Shown here in pieces: positions 42,647 to 59,052 of a stretch of DNA of 64,000 nt. Below the pieces are notes generated by a model that had not been told where the DNA came from, did no database searches, and saw only the letters and a list, made by a program, of their open reading frames with translations. A program made the translations under genes and the position numbers. Origin of the DNA: Nitrospinaceae bacterium (GTDB taxonomy: Bacteria > Nitrospinota > Nitrospinia > Nitrospinales > VA-1); assembly GCA_021604505.1 (NCBI GenBank), contig BQJC01000004.1, positions 304,581 to 368,580 of the forward strand, read 5' to 3'. Each line of letters opens with the position of its first letter. Position 1 is the first letter of the stretch.

Positions 42647-46375
<3,729 letters not shown>

Positions 46376-48370: not shown

Positions 48371-48922
48371 TCACAAAGGCATTCAATATATCCCCATACC
48401 AAATTCGGGAGATCGCCATTACAAACAGGCACTCTACCATTATAACCATAACTCTTTATTTATCAAAGGTTAAATAAGATCCGGTTTTTCAGGGCTTATA
48501 ATAGCATCATGCATTGTTTTCCCTTTATCCCTGATTTTTTCCAGAAAATTCGTAATTTCGAAAAGTAATGATTGTTGCATTTATGCACATTTTTCAAATT
48601 TAAGCGCGCCCGCAGCCGCTAGAAAAAGTCCTGGTTATTAAAGAATTTTAAGCCGTTACTGATAAAAATCATATCCCTCACGATTTAGAGAAAACTTGAT
48701 GAGTCGCTGGTTTTACAATCAAAGTCTTAAAGGATTCAACGCGAAAGGCCATGAAAAAACTTATAAACAACAGTGAAAGCAAGCATTTAATTTATATACA
48801 ATGGAAACTTGAAAAGCGCTTCTAGCCAGCCTATAGTGGAGGGGAAAATTTTTGAAAAGATTAGGTTTGAATTGGAAACCCGATTTTGATTGTGGCGCAA
48901 ATTTTCATTTTAGAACTGTAAT

Positions 48923-48953
48923 CGGACACGAACGACAGTGTCCGAAATTTTTT
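48923..48953 (+). promoter_or_regulatory. Hairpin plus T6 in the greA leader
   Basis: CGGACAC (48923-48929) pairs with GTGTCCG (48938-48944). It is followed by AAATTTTTT and then the GGGAG RBS of greA. Confidence 0.3.
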
Positions 48954-48968
48954 AGGGAGAATTTACTA

Positions 48969-49454
48969 ATGCGGTTGCCAATTCTCGATAAACTGGATGC
49001 GGAACTCGAACAGACGAAAACCGAACTGAAAGTCGATATCCCTAAAGCATTAAAAACCGCCATGGAGCATGGCGATTTGAGTGAAAATGCCGAATTCAAA
49101 GCCGCCAAAGAGCGGCAGATGTTTCTGGAGACCCGCTTATCCCAACTGCAGAAAAGAATCAGCGATGTCATGGCCCTGAACATTGAACGCATTCCAAAAG
49201 ACCGGTCCGGCCTGGGAAGCACCCTGTTCCTAAAAGACCTCGATACGGGAAAGAAAATGCAGTATCACCTGGTATTTCCCGAGGAAGTGAACCCCGATGA
49301 AGGTAAAATTTCAACCGCCTCGCCCGTAGGCAGGGCGCTTTTGGGGAAACAGGAAGGGGATGAAATCACCATCCCCATACCCGGTCAGGAGAAAGAGTTT
49401 GAAATCCTGAAAATCATCACCATCCATGAATCCGGCGGAAGCATTGAAGGATAA
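48969..49454 (+). CDS. greA: Transcription elongation factor GreA family
   Basis: The coiled-coil N-terminus with GDLSENAEFKAAKERQ is the Gre signature. The C-terminal domain has SPVGRALLGKQEGDEI. I chose the ATG at 48969, which has a GGGAG RBS. Confidence 0.85.
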   Translation: MRLPILDKLDAELEQTKTELKVDIPKALKTAMEHGDLSENAEFKAAKERQMFLETRLSQLQKRISDVMALNIERIPKDRSGLGSTLFLKDLDTGKKMQYHLVFPEEVNPDEGKISTASPVGRALLGKQEGDEITIPIPGQEKEFEILKIITIHESGGSIEG

Positions 49455-50097: not shown

Positions 50098-50170
50098 CGC
50101 AGGTTGCAAAGAGTATCATAGACCGGTCCTTGAAATCCCAGAATCATCCGCAAACTAAAGTCTGGAGGAA

Positions 50171-52354
50171 ATGTTGACAACCGAACGGGTTTTGATCGTA
50201 GACGATGAAAAAAATATTGCCAGTTCGCTCAAGGACATCCTGAACGACGAAGGCTATGAAGTCTCCGTTGCCGGGGACGGGCTGGGAGCTTTGGAAATGA
50301 TTCAGTCCGATCCCCCCGATCTGGTTCTGCTCGATATCTGGCTTCCGGGAATGGACGGAATCGAGGTATTAAAAACCGTTAAGACCTATCACCCCGAAAT
50401 TGAAGTTCTGATCATGTCCGGTCACGGCACCATCGACACCGCCGTGCAAGCCACGAAACTCGGCGCATACGATTTTATCGAAAAACCGTTTTCCCTGGAT
50501 CAACTGACCCAGTCGGTGGAAAGCGTTTTCAAGGATAAAAAGAAAAATCAGGGCACCCTCGACAATAATCTTCTCAACCAGAAGGACCTGCCTCTTTGCT
50601 TTGAGATGATGGTGGAAGTGAAAAAAGCCACACAGCAAGCCTCGCAAAATAACGATCCCATATTGCTTCTGGGAGAAAAAGGAACGGGAAAAGAGTTTAT
50701 CGCGCATTGCATTCACCGCCGCAGTCACCAAAGCGACCGCCCCTTCATCAAGTTAAACTGCGCCGTCCGGCAAACGAGAGACATTCAGACCCATCTGTTT
50801 TCCAAAACAAAAAAGCCCGGGAATACATCCCCCGAGGGACAGGGTTCCGTTATTTATTTGAGCAATGTGGAATCCCTGAGCAAGAGTCTTCAGGAGAAAA
50901 TGATTCAGGGGTTGAAAGGGGAAGCGGCCCATACCTTCCTTCCCGCCCGTCTGTTCATCTCCTCATCGAAAAACCTGAGAGCCCTTGGCACAGGGGGGCA
51001 GTTCAACAACGATCTGCTGGAGATATTCAAGAAAACCACCATTGAGATTCCGCCTCTCAGGAATTATGCCGCCAACATTCCCATGATGGTCAAAGACTAT
51101 TTCGAAAAATACGCCGAGAGTGAAAACTTTGCCCCACCCGTGATCGAGGAAGAGGCGCTGGCGGCTTTGTGCCGTTATGATTGGCCGGAGAATGTTAAGG
51201 AATTGCGGTCGGTCCTGGATAAACTTCTGGTGACCGGCTCCACCCAGGGCAAAATCACCTTGCAGGAAATCCTGGCTGAAATCCATACCCTTGATGACGC
51301 GATCGACCAAAAGGAATTCGACCGGTTCGAATCGTTCAAGGAAGCGGAGCTGACCTGGGAAAAAGGCTTCATCATCCACCATCTGAGGAAAAATGGATGG
51401 GACCTGGAAAAGACCTGCAAAGCCCTTAAAACCAGCAAAAAACAATTTAGCGAAAAATTAAAGCGTCACTCCATTCGACTTCCCGAGCCCAATGGCAAAC
51501 AACCCTCACCGCCGCTCTTATTACAGCGAACGCTCAAACGAAGTGTGGTTCTTTGCGGAAGCGGACTGCACTCAGGAATCAACACCGGGCTGATTCTTCA
51601 ACCCCTTCCTCCTGGAAGCGGGATCATTTTTGGAGACATCTCCACCGGCAAAACCATTCCGGCGCGGCTGGAAAATGTTCAGTCCACGGACTACTCCACC
51701 TGCCTGAAAAAAGGGCTGGCTTCCGTGGCCACCATTGAGCATATCATGGCGGTGTTACATATGTACCGCATCTCAAACCTTCTCATTAAAGTCGGCGACG
51801 AAGCCCCGGTGATGGACGGCTCCGCAAAGGATTTCTGTGCATTGATCGAGGATGGCGAATTTGAGGAGCAGGATGGCATTTACGATGAAATCATAATCGA
51901 CAAAACCTACACCTTCGGTCCCGACAAGGAAAACGGTCCGATGATTTCCATCGAGCCCGCAGATAAGTTCACCGTCAGTTATTACATGAAATACCCGGAA
52001 CCCATCGGTGCCCAGGATTACACCTTTGTCTTTGACGGCGAGGACAGCTTTAAAAATGAGATCGCTCCGGCACGCACGTTCGGCTTCATGGAAGACGTGG
52101 CGCAGTTGACGAAAATGGGGTTCGCCACCGGGGGCAAGCTGGACAACTTCATTCTTCTGGGAGACAAAAAGGTTTTGAACACCGAACTCAGATTTGAAGA
52201 CGAGTTCGCGCGTCATAAAATCCTGGATGTCCTGGGGGATTTTTTCCTTTTAGGAAAACCCATCCGCGGTCACATCAAAGCCCACAGAACGGGACACACG
52301 CACAACATCGGACTCTTGAAAAAAATCCAGAAAGATTTTCCCCATGCCGTCTGA
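50171..52354 (+). CDS. lpxC: Fusion protein: response-regulator receiver, degenerate sigma54-type AAA+, Fis-type HTH and UDP-3-O-acyl-GlcNAc deacetylase (LpxC)
   Basis: The REC domain has VLIVDDE...LVLLDIWLPGMDG...KP. The AAA+ domain has Walker A GEKGTGKE but no GAFTGA loop, and the Walker B DE is replaced (VIYLSNV). An HTH lies near KTCKALKTSKKQFSEKLKR. From aa 452 (nt 51524) onward it is a full LpxC. That region reads QRTLKRSVVLCGSGLHSGINTG, TIEHIMAVL, HKILDVLGD and RTGHTHN. Confidence 0.85.
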   Translation: MLTTERVLIVDDEKNIASSLKDILNDEGYEVSVAGDGLGALEMIQSDPPDLVLLDIWLPGMDGIEVLKTVKTYHPEIEVLIMSGHGTIDTAVQATKLGAYDFIEKPFSLDQLTQSVESVFKDKKKNQGTLDNNLLNQKDLPLCFEMMVEVKKATQQASQNNDPILLLGEKGTGKEFIAHCIHRRSHQSDRPFIKLNCAVRQTRDIQTHLFSKTKKPGNTSPEGQGSVIYLSNVESLSKSLQEKMIQGLKGEAAHTFLPARLFISSSKNLRALGTGGQFNNDLLEIFKKTTIEIPPLRNYAANIPMMVKDYFEKYAESENFAPPVIEEEALAALCRYDWPENVKELRSVLDKLLVTGSTQGKITLQEILAEIHTLDDAIDQKEFDRFESFKEAELTWEKGFIIHHLRKNGWDLEKTCKALKTSKKQFSEKLKRHSIRLPEPNGKQPSPPLLLQRTLKRSVVLCGSGLHSGINTGLILQPLPPGSGIIFGDISTGKTIPARLENVQSTDYSTCLKKGLASVATIEHIMAVLHMYRISNLLIKVGDEAPVMDGSAKDFCALIEDGEFEEQDGIYDEIIIDKTYTFGPDKENGPMISIEPADKFTVSYYMKYPEPIGAQDYTFVFDGEDSFKNEIAPARTFGFMEDVAQLTKMGFATGGKLDNFILLGDKKVLNTELRFEDEFARHKILDVLGDFFLLGKPIRGHIKAHRTGHTHNIGLLKKIQKDFPHAV

Positions 52355-52417: not shown

Positions 52418-53764
52418 TCACTCTTGAACTCCGGCTTTTTTGAGCAGGGCCACCATCTCTTTTCGTTTCAATTGCGAAGCGATCTTCAACGCCGTCCAGC
52501 CGTTCCTGCTCTTTGCTCTGGGGTCTGTGCCTTTCCGCAGGAAAAGTCTGGCGAGATCCGCATATCCTCCAGCAACCGCTCCCATTAAAGGCGTCCAGCC
52601 TTTTTTACTCCTGAAGTGGACATTCGCTCCATGTTTCAAGAGAACATGGACCGCCTTCGTTTGCCCTCGTTCAGCGGCAACCATCAAAGCGGTGGAACCG
52701 TTCTGCAACGTTCCGTTAATATCGGCGCCGGCCTCGATCAATTCCTCAATCGTCTCAGCATCGCCTCCCGCCGCGGCGCTCATGAGTGCGTTGGCGCCGT
52801 TTCGACTTCGCGCATGAATATCGGCGTCCTGTTTCAGCAGCATCCGGACAAATTCTATGTTTCCCAACTGCGCCGCCATCATGAGCGGCGTACTACCGCC
52901 CCCGGTTCTGGCATTCACATCGGCCCCGTGCGCGAGCAAAACTCTACCGGCTTCGGTTTGACCGTGTTTAGCGGCCTGCGCCAACGGTGTCCATCCCTTG
53001 TTGTTTTTTGCATGAACATTGGCCCCCTCTTTCAAAAGAACTCGCATGGAATCCGTCTGTCCGTGGGCCGTTGCCAGGACCAGTGCCGTATCGCCGGATG
53101 CGTTAGCGAGTTCCGGGTTCGCCCTGTGGTCCATCAGCAATTGAACCATGTCCGACCGCCCGGTGAAAACCGCCTGTTGCAATGGAGTCACGCCCAACTG
53201 GGTTTGGGAGTTGACATTGGCCTTTCGCTCAACCAATTCATGCGCCACGGCATAATGATTCTCTCCTATGGCGATCGTCAACGGGGTTGCGCCGCCTTTA
53301 ATGGGCGACTCCAGATCGGCGTCACGGGCGATCAACCGTTTCACTGTTTCCTCATGTCCGTACCGGGCGGCCCTGGCCAACGGGCTCCAGCCGTAAAGGT
53401 TGCGGGCATTGACATCCGCGCCGTTGTCGAGAAGGGTTTTAACGAGAATGGTATCCCCTAAAGTCGATGCCAGAATGAGTGCGGTGTCACCATACCGGTT
53501 TTCCGCATTGACATTCGCCCCCTGCTCCAAAAGTAGATCCACAATGCGAAGATGCCTGTCCGCCACCGCGACCATGAGGGGGGTGCTGCCTTTGGCAGTC
53601 CGGTATTCCAGATAAACCCCTTCGGAAACCAGACCCGCAACCTCCTCGTAATCACCCCGATGGACCGCAGACAAAAAATCAGCTTTTTGGTCGCTGAATG
53701 CAGGATTGGATTGCCATAGAAAAGCCAAAAGCCCAATGGCAATGATAATGCTCCGTCTAGTCAT
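52418..53764 (-). CDS. Secreted ankyrin-repeat protein (about 12-13 repeats)
   Basis: It has a signal peptide. After that it is almost entirely 33-aa ANK repeats (G.TPL..A...GH...V..LL..GA.VNA). Confidence 0.85.
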   Translation of the reverse strand: MTRRSIIIAIGLLAFLWQSNPAFSDQKADFLSAVHRGDYEEVAGLVSEGVYLEYRTAKGSTPLMVAVADRHLRIVDLLLEQGANVNAENRYGDTALILASTLGDTILVKTLLDNGADVNARNLYGWSPLARAARYGHEETVKRLIARDADLESPIKGGATPLTIAIGENHYAVAHELVERKANVNSQTQLGVTPLQQAVFTGRSDMVQLLMDHRANPELANASGDTALVLATAHGQTDSMRVLLKEGANVHAKNNKGWTPLAQAAKHGQTEAGRVLLAHGADVNARTGGGSTPLMMAAQLGNIEFVRMLLKQDADIHARSRNGANALMSAAAGGDAETIEELIEAGADINGTLQNGSTALMVAAERGQTKAVHVLLKHGANVHFRSKKGWTPLMGAVAGGYADLARLFLRKGTDPRAKSRNGWTALKIASQLKRKEMVALLKKAGVQE

Positions 53765-57028: not shown

Positions 57029-57328
57029 TTGTCTCGATCATCTATGATGGACATTCATGCCCAGCTTGAAGATCTTAAATCGGTGGCCGCGAAATTATCC
57101 ATCGAAATTGAAATCTGTAACCTGGGAGACGAAGAACTTTCCATCCAAAGCGGCTTGTGCAAAATAAAAGGCAATCACGTTCTTTTCCTGGATAAAAAAC
57201 TCGACCCGGAAAGTCAATTGGAGGTCATTTTGAAAGCGTTGGAAAACTTTGACCTGGAAACCATCTTTGTCCCGTCGTGGATGCGCGAGCGACTGGAAAA
57301 ATCGCAACCTTCAAAAAATGATCAATGA
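57029..57328 (+). CDS. Hypothetical 99-aa protein, translationally coupled to the PEP mutase gene
   Basis: Its stop overlaps the next start as ATGA (57325-57328). No family recognised. The start is uncertain (TTG at 57029 or internal ATGs). Confidence 0.4.
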   Translation: MSRSSMMDIHAQLEDLKSVAAKLSIEIEICNLGDEELSIQSGLCKIKGNHVLFLDKKLDPESQLEVILKALENFDLETIFVPSWMRERLEKSQPSKNDQ

Positions 57329-59052
57329 CGTTACTGAATAGCACACTGCCCGAAGTGCGCCGCGGAAAACTCAAATCCCTTTTGCGGGCCGGAAAAACCG
57401 TCCGCGTTTTGGAAGCGCATAACGGTTTGAGCGGGATCGTCGCCAACAACGCCAAAGTGGAAGGCGTTCTGGAGGACACTCCGGTTTCGCGCGAATTCGA
57501 CGCCATTTGGGAGAGCAGTCTGACCGATTCGGCGTCCAAGGGGCACCCGGACATTGAAGTGATCAGCTTCGACTCCCGGCTGCACACCATCCATGAAATC
57601 CTGGCGGTCACCCATAAACCCATGATCGTCGACGGCGACACCGGAGGCGATGCGAACAATTTTGAGTACATGGTTTCCAAGCTGGAACGCGCCGGGGTTT
57701 CGGCGGTCATCATAGAAGACAAGGTGTTTCCCAAAAGAAACAGCCTGGAAGCGGGGACAAAACAGACTTTGCAGGAGCCGGAAGTATTCGCGCAAAAAAT
57801 CCGCCGCGGAAAGAGCGTTCTTTCCACCGGGGATTTCATGATCATCGCCCGGCTGGAAAGCCTGATCGCCGGCATGGGCTTAGAAGACGCTTTGGAACGG
57901 GCAAAAACTTATCTGCTCGCCGGGGTCGACGGGATCATGATCCATTCCAAATCAAAAAGCCCCGAAGAGATCTTAAAGTTTGCGGAGCAATACCGCAACC
58001 TGCTCAAAGAACTCAAACTCGACAAGCCCCTGGTTTGCGTTCCCACAACCTACAACGATATCACCGAAGATGAATTGAGCGCCGCCGGGTTTCGCATTGT
58101 CATCTACGCCAATCATTTACTGCGCAGTGCCTACAAATCCATGCTGGAAGTGAGCAAGACCCTGCTTCTCAACCAGCGGTCTTTTGAAGCGGATCCCATG
58201 TGCTCACCGGTACGTGATATTTTCCAGGCCGTCGGCTTTCTGGACATCAAGGAAAAAGATCAACAGGACGAACTCTCGGCCCAACTCCCGGTCATCATTC
58301 CCGCCGCCGGAGAGGACCCGATTTTCAAACCCCTCCTGAACGGCAAACCCAAAGCCATGATGGAAATCGCAGGAAAGACTCTCCTCGACCAGCAGATCCA
58401 CACTCTGAATAAGGGCAACCTCAACGACATCACCGTTGTCGCCGGTTACGCCGCCGACCAGATGAAGGCCGAAGGCGCGACCCTGCTGAAAAATGAGGAT
58501 TATAAAAACGGCTCCATGCTGCACAGCATTCTCGCCGCCAGGGAAAAAATGCAAAACGGCTTTCTCATGCTGTATTCGGATATTCTCCTGGAAAACCATA
58601 TCATCACCAAATTGCTGGACTGCAAGGAAGACATCGTGCTGGTCGCCGACAACACCATTCAGTACCAGCGTGCGGAAGAAGGCAAGGTTCTGGACTTCAT
58701 CATCAGCAAGCACAAGCATCAACCCAGCCGCCGCCGCATCAGCGTCGTTTATGAAAATAATATCGCCAAGATCGGAAACAAGATCAATCCGGAAACCGCC
58801 ACCCACGAATTTATTGGATTGGCAAAATTTTCCAAGTCAGGAGCGGAGCAGTTTATCCAGACCTATCAGGATTGCATTCAGAACTATCAAGGGAAGTTCC
58901 AGGAAGCCGATGATATCGCCCATTTCACATTCACCGACTTGATCCAGGAAATGATCGACCGCGGATTTGTCATCCATTTTCTGGAGATTCACCAGGGCTG
59001 GCTGGAAATTCACCGCGAAGAAGACATTGCCCTGGCCAACAAATTTCTGTAA
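57325..59052 (+). CDS. pepM: Phosphoenolpyruvate mutase fused to a nucleotidyltransferase (LicC/PntC-like) domain
   Basis: The N-terminal isocitrate-lyase/PEP-mutase fold includes the PepM-diagnostic EDKX5NS motif (EDKVFPKRNS, nt 57715-57744) and DGDTGGD. From about aa 320 it has the NTP-transferase motif VIIPAAGEDPIFKPLLNGKPKAMMEIAGKTLL. Confidence 0.85.
   Translation: MTLLNSTLPEVRRGKLKSLLRAGKTVRVLEAHNGLSGIVANNAKVEGVLEDTPVSREFDAIWESSLTDSASKGHPDIEVISFDSRLHTIHEILAVTHKPMIVDGDTGGDANNFEYMVSKLERAGVSAVIIEDKVFPKRNSLEAGTKQTLQEPEVFAQKIRRGKSVLSTGDFMIIARLESLIAGMGLEDALERAKTYLLAGVDGIMIHSKSKSPEEILKFAEQYRNLLKELKLDKPLVCVPTTYNDITEDELSAAGFRIVIYANHLLRSAYKSMLEVSKTLLLNQRSFEADPMCSPVRDIFQAVGFLDIKEKDQQDELSAQLPVIIPAAGEDPIFKPLLNGKPKAMMEIAGKTLLDQQIHTLNKGNLNDITVVAGYAADQMKAEGATLLKNEDYKNGSMLHSILAAREKMQNGFLMLYSDILLENHIITKLLDCKEDIVLVADNTIQYQRAEEGKVLDFIISKHKHQPSRRRISVVYENNIAKIGNKINPETATHEFIGLAKFSKSGAEQFIQTYQDCIQNYQGKFQEADDIAHFTFTDLIQEMIDRGFVIHFLEIHQGWLEIHREEDIALANKFL

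Follow-up and report, generated by a model that had tools for sequence, protein, structure and literature searches.

Can a single gene join a phosphorylatable receiver to the enzyme that commits a cell to lipid A synthesis, and what would the one do to the other? The question is raised by an open reading frame (ORF) at positions 50171-52354 (+) of a 64,000-nucleotide stretch of DNA from a Nitrospinaceae bacterium (contig BQJC01000004.1), hereafter referred to as the window. The ORF is uninterrupted and encodes 727 amino acids (aa), in which a response-regulator receiver (REC), a degenerate AAA+ domain with its lid and a degenerate helix-turn-helix (HTH) are followed by a full-length LpxC. [quoted passage not shown] The control of its activity is understood mainly in enterobacteria, where it proceeds through FtsH/LapB proteolysis, and is an open question elsewhere (PMC12444477).

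A complete LpxC at the end of a response regulator

The ORF list, Pfam and NCBIfam models and a protein search together define the gene as an NtrX-type response regulator fused to LpxC. Its product is deposited as GenBank GJL80066.1, 'hypothetical protein NPINA01_30550 [Nitrospinaceae bacterium]'. A first-pass annotation of the window had described a single 727-aa ORF that enters LpxC from nucleotide 51524 with no start codon. This description proved accurate: Q452 of the sequence QRTLKRS falls exactly on 51524, and every motif that had been quoted was located at its position.

The LpxC domain occupies residues 452-727 (51524..52351, +). Pfam PF03331 matches residues 452-720 over model positions 1-267 of 268 (E 7.8e-80; 268.7 bits against a cut-off of 27), and the lpxC equivalog model TIGR00325 scores 234.6 bits, above its cut-off of 187.25. 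The zinc ligands H524, H682 and D686 and the catalytic residues E523 and H709 are present together with T636, K683 and D690. The residues tested correspond to zinc ligands His79, His238 and Asp242 and to Glu78, His265, Thr191, Lys239 and Asp246 in E. coli LpxC numbering. All eight align one-to-one with P. aeruginosa LpxC and are invariant in 75 sequences of 41-84% identity, which upholds the earlier statement that the zinc and catalytic His/Asp contexts (TIEHIM, residues 521-526; HKILDVLGD, 682-690; GHTHN, 708-712) are intact. The modelled domain superimposes on Aquifex aeolicus LpxC (1yh8) with a template modelling (TM) score of 0.93 and a root-mean-square deviation of 1.9 A over 275 columns (Foldseek), and the block means of the AlphaFold2 predicted local distance difference test (pLDDT) are mostly 80-96 over residues 452-722. 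The domain is a bona fide LpxC on all three counts, model score, catalytic residues and fold, and deacetylase activity is predicted for it. Like the stand-alone enzymes of E. coli, P. aeruginosa and A. aeolicus, it is full length, carries all zinc-binding and catalytic residues and has the same predicted fold; unlike them, it is preceded by a 450-residue signalling module and lacks an extended C-terminal tail, ending 7 residues past the aligned core compared to 28 in P. aeruginosa LpxC. In E. coli LpxC the C-terminal tail is the FtsH degron (PMC12444477).

Could such a domain serve as a non-catalytic sensor of UDP-3-O-acyl-GlcNAc for the regulator, with housekeeping left to a separate stand-alone LpxC? 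Enzyme-derived sensor domains are known in other regulators, and a second lpxC could lie elsewhere in the genome. We consider this reading very unlikely. The zinc ligands and catalytic residues would hardly be invariant over so wide a range of identity, LpxC is the most conserved part of the protein, and TIGR00325 scores it above the equivalog cut-off. The shortest relatives, described below, consist of REC and LpxC and offer no output for a sensor to control. By tblastn, no second lpxC is present within the window. In an exhaustive search of cluster representatives no close stand-alone LpxC paralogue was found, the nearest being about 44% identical and nested among fused forms. A published survey lists a single LpxC for Nitrospina gracilis (PMC5007114 supplement).

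Two LpxC-only entries, P0318 (277 aa) and P0330 (288 aa), share at least 90% identity with the LpxC portion of fused proteins with which they cluster. Truncated gene calls or frameshifts are the probable cause, though these may be real secondary splits.

At the other end of the protein, the receiver covers residues 5-122 (50183..50536, +; Pfam PF00072 Response_reg, residues 7-116, E 5.5e-33). It had been called canonical on the strength of its DDE, phospho-acceptor aspartate and K-P motifs, and all residues of the phospho-chemistry are indeed kept: the quintet D11, D12, D55, S83 and K105 is complete, with F102 as the switch residue, and the motifs are DDE (residues 11-13), LLDIW, which contains D55, and K105-P106. 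D55, the predicted phospho-acceptor (codon 50333..50335, +), is invariant in three alignments and aligns with D53 of Brucella NtrX. In the same 75 sequences, which represent all architectures of the family, D55 and K105 are invariant and D11, D12, S83 and F102 are at least 90% conserved. The receivers of the minimal REC-LpxC proteins share the signatures of the window protein, DIW(L/M)P..DG, SGHG.I.TA and F(I/L)EKP.

Architectures and conservation of the fusion family

A first search of 5.8 billion proteins yielded more than 120 clusters with the same four-domain architecture (62-100% identity, 720-750 aa), labelled Nitrospinaceae, Nitrospina, Nitromaritima or Nitrospinota. Architectures were surveyed by an exhaustive HMMER search of 1.84 billion cluster representatives mapped by domain. 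Each has LpxC as its last domain: REC-AAA-HTH-LpxC (about 730 aa, with identity as low as 39%), REC-AAA-LpxC with no HTH (650-712 aa, including the divergent Nitrospinota loci L001 and L002), REC-HTH-LpxC (about 490-505 aa) and REC-LpxC (420-460 aa). More than 80 further clusters of the last kind came from a second search, for which a REC-LpxC protein served as the seed. The sources are named as Nitrospinota, Candidatus Schekmanbacteria, Candidatus Entotheonellia, Candidatus Binatia, 'Deltaproteobacteria' metagenome-assembled genomes (MAGs) and Thermoanaerobaculia, and public labels call family members LpxC, NtrX or hypothetical only. Orthologous fusions, which the first-pass annotation had suggested looking for, thus exist both in the same architecture and in shorter forms; the fusion is a conserved family across several phyla and not a one-genome curiosity.

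The same data dispose of the concern that an assembly error or a frameshift has joined separate ntrX-like and lpxC genes, a reading to which we attach a negligible probability and for which no supporting point was found. The ORF recurs uninterrupted in hundreds of independent assemblies (NCBI, ENA, JGI, Logan, Tara), the carrier contigs include ones of 3.25, 2.86, 2.43 and 2.31 Mb, and the synteny around the gene is conserved, so that an artefact is ruled out. The junction itself has no usable start codon or ribosome-binding site. It lies in a proline-rich linker between HTH and LpxC (residues 437-451, 51479..51523, +) that varies in length and sequence, with 24% mean pairwise identity, zero invariant columns and a predicted pLDDT below 50 at residues 442-445. 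The stretch from residue 425 to residue 475 contains a single in-frame start-like codon, a GTG at residue 459, within the conserved N-terminal strand of LpxC, and nothing resembling a ribosome-binding site precedes it. An internal start giving a stand-alone LpxC was rejected on these grounds.

On a tree of LpxC domains the architectures are interspersed, with REC-HTH-LpxC and REC-LpxC proteins sister to full-length ones; this is a quick neighbour-joining tree with one true outgroup, which is indicative only and is no proof that the fusion arose just once. On it, the two genuine stand-alone LpxCs are placed among fused forms. Because the architectures are interspersed, the tree suggests that the AAA+ and HTH modules were lost repeatedly by internal deletion.

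Conservation is distributed unevenly along the protein. In pairwise comparisons within Nitrospinaceae, REC averages 80% identity and LpxC 83%, the AAA+ core 52%, the lid 50%, the HTH 62% and the linkers 24-37%. Judged from these alignments, selection is concentrated on the two ends, REC and LpxC, and the fusion is under strong purifying selection. The presence of REC and LpxC in every architecture, with AAA+ and HTH repeatedly lost, is what would be expected if the receiver acts on LpxC.

The NtrX-like middle

The regulator that was joined to LpxC resembles NtrX. Among NCBIfam regulator models the best match is NtrX (NF051870; 259.9 bits, compared to 195.6 for NtrC). In the Protein Data Bank, Brucella abortus NtrX ranks first in the sequence comparison (5m7n, E 4.5e-58, residues 7-431 against 6-450) and again in the fold comparison (E 1.6e-31), and the best non-fused genomic matches are alphaproteobacterial NtrX proteins; a scan of a genome collection picked up mostly such proteins, through the peptide YDFIEKPF, and two Nitrospinota loci. 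By these comparisons, the N-terminal half is specifically NtrX-like. The order of REC, AAA+ without the GAFTGA loop and Fis-type HTH is that of NtrX in the NtrY/NtrX systems of alphaproteobacteria (B. abortus, 5M7N/5M7O/5M7P; Rhodobacter sphaeroides; Caulobacter). The fusion nevertheless differs from NtrX proper: identity is only 28-32%, and the score of the window protein falls short of the NtrX equivalog cut-off of 600 bits.

The AAA+ core spans residues 146-298 (50606..51064, +; Pfam PF00158 Sigma54_activat, residues 146-286, E 2.5e-17) and its lid residues 299-373 (51065..51289, +; PF25601 AAA_lid_14, residues 301-373). Alignment with NtrC1 and NtrX bore out the earlier account of this domain, in which Walker A is kept, the GAFTGA loop is missing and the Walker B D-E is replaced. 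Walker A reads GEKGTGKE (residues 168-175, 50672-50695, +). GAFTGA is lacking here, just as in NtrX. At the Walker B position stands VIYLSNV (residues 227-233, 50849-50869, +), the change being from GTLFLDEI to SVIYLSNV. Two further losses had escaped the first-pass annotation: the arginine-finger stretch FREDLYYRL has become FNNDLLEIF (51002-51028, +), by which both finger positions are lost, and the sensor II arginine is a lysine (ENVKELRS, residues 340-347). Neither GAFTGA nor a Walker B of the form hhhhDE was found in any of 20 divergent fusions checked, and no family member examined has the Walker B glutamate or the arginine fingers. The deeper fusions keep the Walker B aspartate and never the glutamate; 4 of the 20 are devoid of Walker A as well. 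Brucella NtrX, by comparison, keeps the Walker B LDE, of which the fusion family lacks the glutamate and the Nitrospinaceae the aspartate too.

With GAFTGA, Walker B, the arginine fingers and the sensor II arginine lost, the central domain is predicted to be a pseudo-ATPase, unable to contact sigma54 or to hydrolyse ATP. An active sigma54 activator was rejected, since GAFTGA, Walker B and the arginine fingers are all lacking. The domain may still bind nucleotide, because its P-loop is intact and invariant within Nitrospinaceae. The first-pass annotation had proposed that it acts as an oligomerisation scaffold. Such a role, to judge from the architectures, cannot be essential to the coupling of receiver and enzyme, because many relatives have no AAA+ domain at all.

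The HTH (residues 388-436, 51332..51478, +) is delimited by the NtrX alignment, which extends to residue 431, and by predicted helices. It had been called Fis-type without reservation. In favour of that call, besides the alignment, are a three-helix bundle predicted at residues 389-432 and weak matches of Pfam HTH_8 in distant relatives. The window protein itself has no HTH_8 match at E<0.1, and its turn, usually LG(I/M)S, reads LKTS, where deeper relatives retain LGI or MGI. By its sequence, the HTH of the window protein is therefore best described as degenerate and decaying.

These features bear on the possibility that the protein is bifunctional, a transcription factor and an enzyme in one chain. 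The NtrX-like half would bind DNA as a sigma70-type regulator of envelope genes, and LpxC would be attached for co-expression or stoichiometry, its activity unaffected by phosphorylation. The predicted three-helix bundle is compatible with this, as are the 62% identity of the HTH in Nitrospinaceae, well above that of the linkers, and the canonical LGIS-type turns and weak HTH_8 matches of deeper relatives; alphaproteobacterial NtrX, moreover, is a DNA-binding regulator of envelope genes (PMC7240162). We nevertheless regard it as unlikely. The HTH is missing from a series of family members (L001, L002, P0132, P0135, P0140-P0143, P0147), more than 80 REC-LpxC clusters are without both HTH and AAA+, and in the window protein the turn glycine is replaced and HTH_8 does not match. 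A receiver whose sole output is LpxC makes little sense unless it acts on LpxC.

NtrY linkage and the proposed control of LpxC

Which kinase would act on the receiver? Outside Nitrospinaceae, an NtrY-type kinase gene lies directly upstream of the fusion gene, at 0-20 bp or overlapping it, in six of seven contexts (L082, L083, L084, L085, L089, L090). The kinase is about 750 aa long and consists of HAMP, PAS, HisKA and HATPase_c domains, and NtrY_N is matched in L085 and L089 and, weakly, in L084. In L083 and L085 a DUF4390 gene precedes the kinase gene. The L083 locus, from a 3.9-Mb genome with a 710-aa fusion, continues downstream with purM-purN-lolA-rseP, in parallel to purN-lolA-rseP in the window. 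The first-pass annotation had left the cognate histidine kinase to be identified; linkage in relatives points to NtrY, and from it we infer that NtrY phosphorylates the fusion receiver. A probable NtrY-type partner with NtrY_N is a further likeness to the alphaproteobacterial NtrYX systems, which are tied to the envelope, to lpxC and to lipopolysaccharide (LPS) levels (PMC7240162, PMC12444477).

In Nitrospinaceae the arrangement is different. By tblastn, no histidine kinase is encoded within the window and none near the fusions of L001, L002 and L081, the last being the 3.25-Mb genome. The gene order that the window shares with L081 is HDOD, SPOR, greA, trmB, fusion, purN, lolA, rseP, PEP (phosphoenolpyruvate) mutase, proS. 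Nitrospinaceae do possess NtrY proteins: P0547, P0541 (from the same 3.25-Mb genome as the fusion P0025) and an annotated NtrY in Nitrospina gracilis. In the genomes examined they are encoded in the order mutS-DUF4390-ntrY with no regulator gene after ntrY, and about 138 kb separate ntrY from the fusion gene in the 3.25-Mb genome. Most simply, a rearrangement would have broken up an ancestral operon DUF4390-ntrY-(ntrX::lpxC)-purN-lolA, and the orphaned kinase and regulator would still cooperate.

Several observations were made on genes near ntrY. The DUF4390 gene stands immediately upstream of ntrY, sometimes overlapping it, at L083 7135-7740, L085 7176-7748, L086 2811-3509 and L087 9355-10026; by analogy, its product is a candidate accessory partner of NtrY, perhaps NtrZ-like. 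LapA and LapB control LpxC in E. coli, and a LapA-domain gene is found at L083 3916-4314, three genes upstream of ntrY with mutS and DUF4390 between, which is possibly coincidental. In a Thermoanaerobaculia MAG (L088, 3206-7290) the REC-LpxC gene follows genes for a BlaI-like repressor (Penicillinase_R) and a BlaR1-like M56 sensor-protease, an envelope-sensing pair.

Taken together, we propose that the gene encodes the response regulator of an NtrY/NtrX-type system with LpxC as its output, controlled post-translationally through phosphorylation of the receiver; we put the probability of this reading at about 0.55. The membrane kinase NtrY (NtrY_N, HAMP, PAS, HisKA, HATPase; usually encoded after a DUF4390 protein) would sense an envelope or redox cue and set the phosphorylation state of D55. 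Phosphorylation would alter dimerisation of the receiver, as in other NtrC-family regulators, and the signal would pass through a long alpha-5 helix (predicted at residues 109-135) and the inert AAA+/HTH body, or, in the minimal forms, through a plain linker. As a result LpxC would be differently arranged or accessible, and the flux to lipid A would change with it. Two-component control would in this way replace the FtsH/LapB proteolysis of enterobacteria, the E. coli-type C-terminal degron being absent here. We infer that phosphorylation alters deacetylase activity, in either direction, and that the fusion is the working LpxC of the cell. The window carries further LPS-related genes, namely one for a PAP2-family phosphatase followed by two for GT9 heptosyltransferases (30-2937, +) and also lolA; the organism thus makes LPS and therefore needs an active LpxC.

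Deletion of ntrYX in R. sphaeroides raised lpxC mRNA 8.8-fold and increased LPS, with no NtrX site at lpxC (PMC7240162), and according to a 2025 review NtrYX represses lpxC transcription in R. sphaeroides as well as in C. crescentus (PMC12444477). On this analogy, LpxC may be held back by the NtrX module, with the sign open to either direction. Known NtrX acts on lpxC indirectly, via transcription, whereas here LpxC is part of the same polypeptide. A similar comparison can be made with DVU2934 of Desulfovibrio vulgaris, a two-component regulator whose sole mapped target is lpxC; in Syntrophobacter, lpxC stands beside an operon orthologous to that of DVU2934 (PMC3333781). DVU2934 differs in acting on transcription, from a separate gene.

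The layout of receiver, flexible linker and enzyme is well precedented by CheB (REC-methylesterase), RpfG (REC-HD-GYP) and PleD/WspR (REC-GGDEF), and the REC-LpxC relatives of 420-460 aa are built in exactly this way. In CheB the active site is blocked by the receiver as long as the latter is unphosphorylated. What sets the present family apart is its output, a biosynthetic metallo-amidase from the lipid A pathway, together with the relic AAA+/HTH body that the window protein retains. To our knowledge the only established fusion of LpxC is LpxC-FabZ. That protein (NCBIfam NF009667, PRK13188) demonstrates that LpxC tolerates fusion; its partner is a C-terminal fatty-acid dehydratase, implying metabolic coupling, compared to an N-terminal phospho-receiver and signalling here.

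Phosphorylation of the receiver could, alternatively, set the abundance or position of LpxC and not its rate, the receiver being a phosphorylation-dependent degron or adaptor site, as in RssB and CpdR, or docking LpxC to membrane-bound NtrY. The bacteria studied mostly regulate the amount of LpxC (FtsH/LapB, Lon) or its localisation to the membrane (Ght in Neisseria) (PMC12444477), the window protein lacks a C-terminal degron of the E. coli type, and the linkers of REC-LpxC proteins are long, variable and predicted to be disordered. No protease, adaptor or anchoring partner is conserved beside the gene in the contexts examined, and no sequence feature specifically indicates a degron. Control of stability or localisation is, in our estimate, improbable, at something like one chance in several.

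Direct control of LpxC by its receiver, the reading we prefer, has several points to answer. In Nitrospinaceae the AAA+ and HTH domains are still clearly more conserved than the linkers and must on that account still do something; they likely keep a residual function, for example in binding DNA, sensing nucleotides or providing a scaffold. The structure prediction of the window protein gives good domains with no confident arrangement between them (predicted TM score, pTM, 0.49); that of a minimal REC-LpxC protein reaches a pTM of 0.77 with a disordered 21-residue linker. The ntrY gene is unlinked from the fusion gene in Nitrospinaceae, and the Thermoanaerobaculia context (L088) has no adjacent kinase. 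In Caulobacter, where NtrZ is periplasmic, NtrY is mainly a phosphatase and NtrX is phosphorylated without it; by analogy, a scheme in which NtrY phosphorylates the receiver may be too simple. A distant second stand-alone lpxC may be present elsewhere in the genome. Finally, for every family member the mechanism rests on sequence and genomic context. Each of these points weighs against the proposal.

The start and surroundings of the fusion gene in the window were also inspected. A Shine-Dalgarno-like GGAGGA (50164..50169, +) lies 1 nucleotide before the ATG at 50171 and 4 nucleotides before an in-frame TTG at 50174. The TTG, being better spaced, may be the true start; public gene calls for the identical protein differ accordingly in length (P0001, 726 aa; P0122, 727 aa). 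A scan for promoters and terminators around the gene gave nothing decisive. A sigma70-like promoter match (10/12) at 48809-48837 would let greA, trmB and the fusion form one transcription unit. The greA ORF (48852-49454, +; TTG start, 200 aa) is about 40 residues longer than GreA of L081 (160 aa), and the real greA start probably lies internal to it.

Among the other genes of the window, one at 52418-53764 (-), between the fusion and purN, encodes a 448-aa protein that consists almost wholly of ankyrin repeats; the syntenic L081 lacks it, and it looks like a lineage-specific insertion. Syntenically downstream of rseP, a 575-aa fusion of PEP mutase and a MobA-like nucleotidyltransferase (57325-59052, +; L081 15454-17181) suggests phosphonate synthesis, possibly to decorate a glycan or lipid. 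Two tandem DegP/HtrA-type proteases of periplasmic quality control, each with a trypsin-like and two PDZ domains, are encoded at 21580-24611 (-), and a 1242-aa hydantoinase/oxoprolinase A+B fusion at 42647-46375 (-) has a counterpart at the same position in L081 (1282 aa).

Novelty and meaning of the fusion

The first-pass annotation knew of no characterised example of such a protein, and none turned up in the literature searched. A full-text search, which reached few subscription papers, returned no description of a receiver-LpxC or NtrX-LpxC fusion, nor of the deacetylase of lipid A synthesis as an output of a response regulator. The words 'fused' and 'fusion' are absent from the 2025 review of lipid A regulation (PMC12444477). 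Of the overall reading first given to the gene, a genuine and conserved fusion with intact REC and LpxC residues stands; the HTH has turned out to be degenerate and the AAA+ domain dispensable to the coupling. The gating of lipid A flux by phosphorylation, which the annotation had put forward, is kept as a hypothesis. On the evidence of its domains, the fusion family would represent a new output domain for two-component signalling and a new, so far hypothetical, mode of LpxC control. It also provides a graded natural series of the decay of a sigma54 activator, from a full NtrX body through a pseudo-ATPase to a bare receiver.

A receiver-LpxC fusion encoded beside a sensor kinase can be read as a 'Rosetta stone', suggesting direct phospho-control of outer-membrane lipid synthesis with NtrY as the likely sensor. 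It would also explain in biochemical terms how NtrYX comes to affect lpxC and LPS in alphaproteobacteria, an 'indirect' effect so far unexplained. A broader idea, which we put forward tentatively and at somewhat less than even odds, is that NtrY/NtrX is at root a system that keeps lipid A and the outer membrane in homeostasis: the NtrX receiver of at least six lineages would directly gate LpxC by phosphorylation, and the transcriptional link between NtrYX and lpxC in alphaproteobacteria would be the split-gene version of the same system.

Nitrospinaceae, the main nitrite oxidisers of the ocean, are among the carriers of the fusion. The distribution and conservation of the family suggest that several little-studied phyla control the synthesis of their outer membrane directly by phosphorylation. 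If the proposal is true, the family would provide the first known example of a two-component system that controls lipid A synthesis directly through phosphorylation, and LpxC would count as a response-regulator output domain of a new class.

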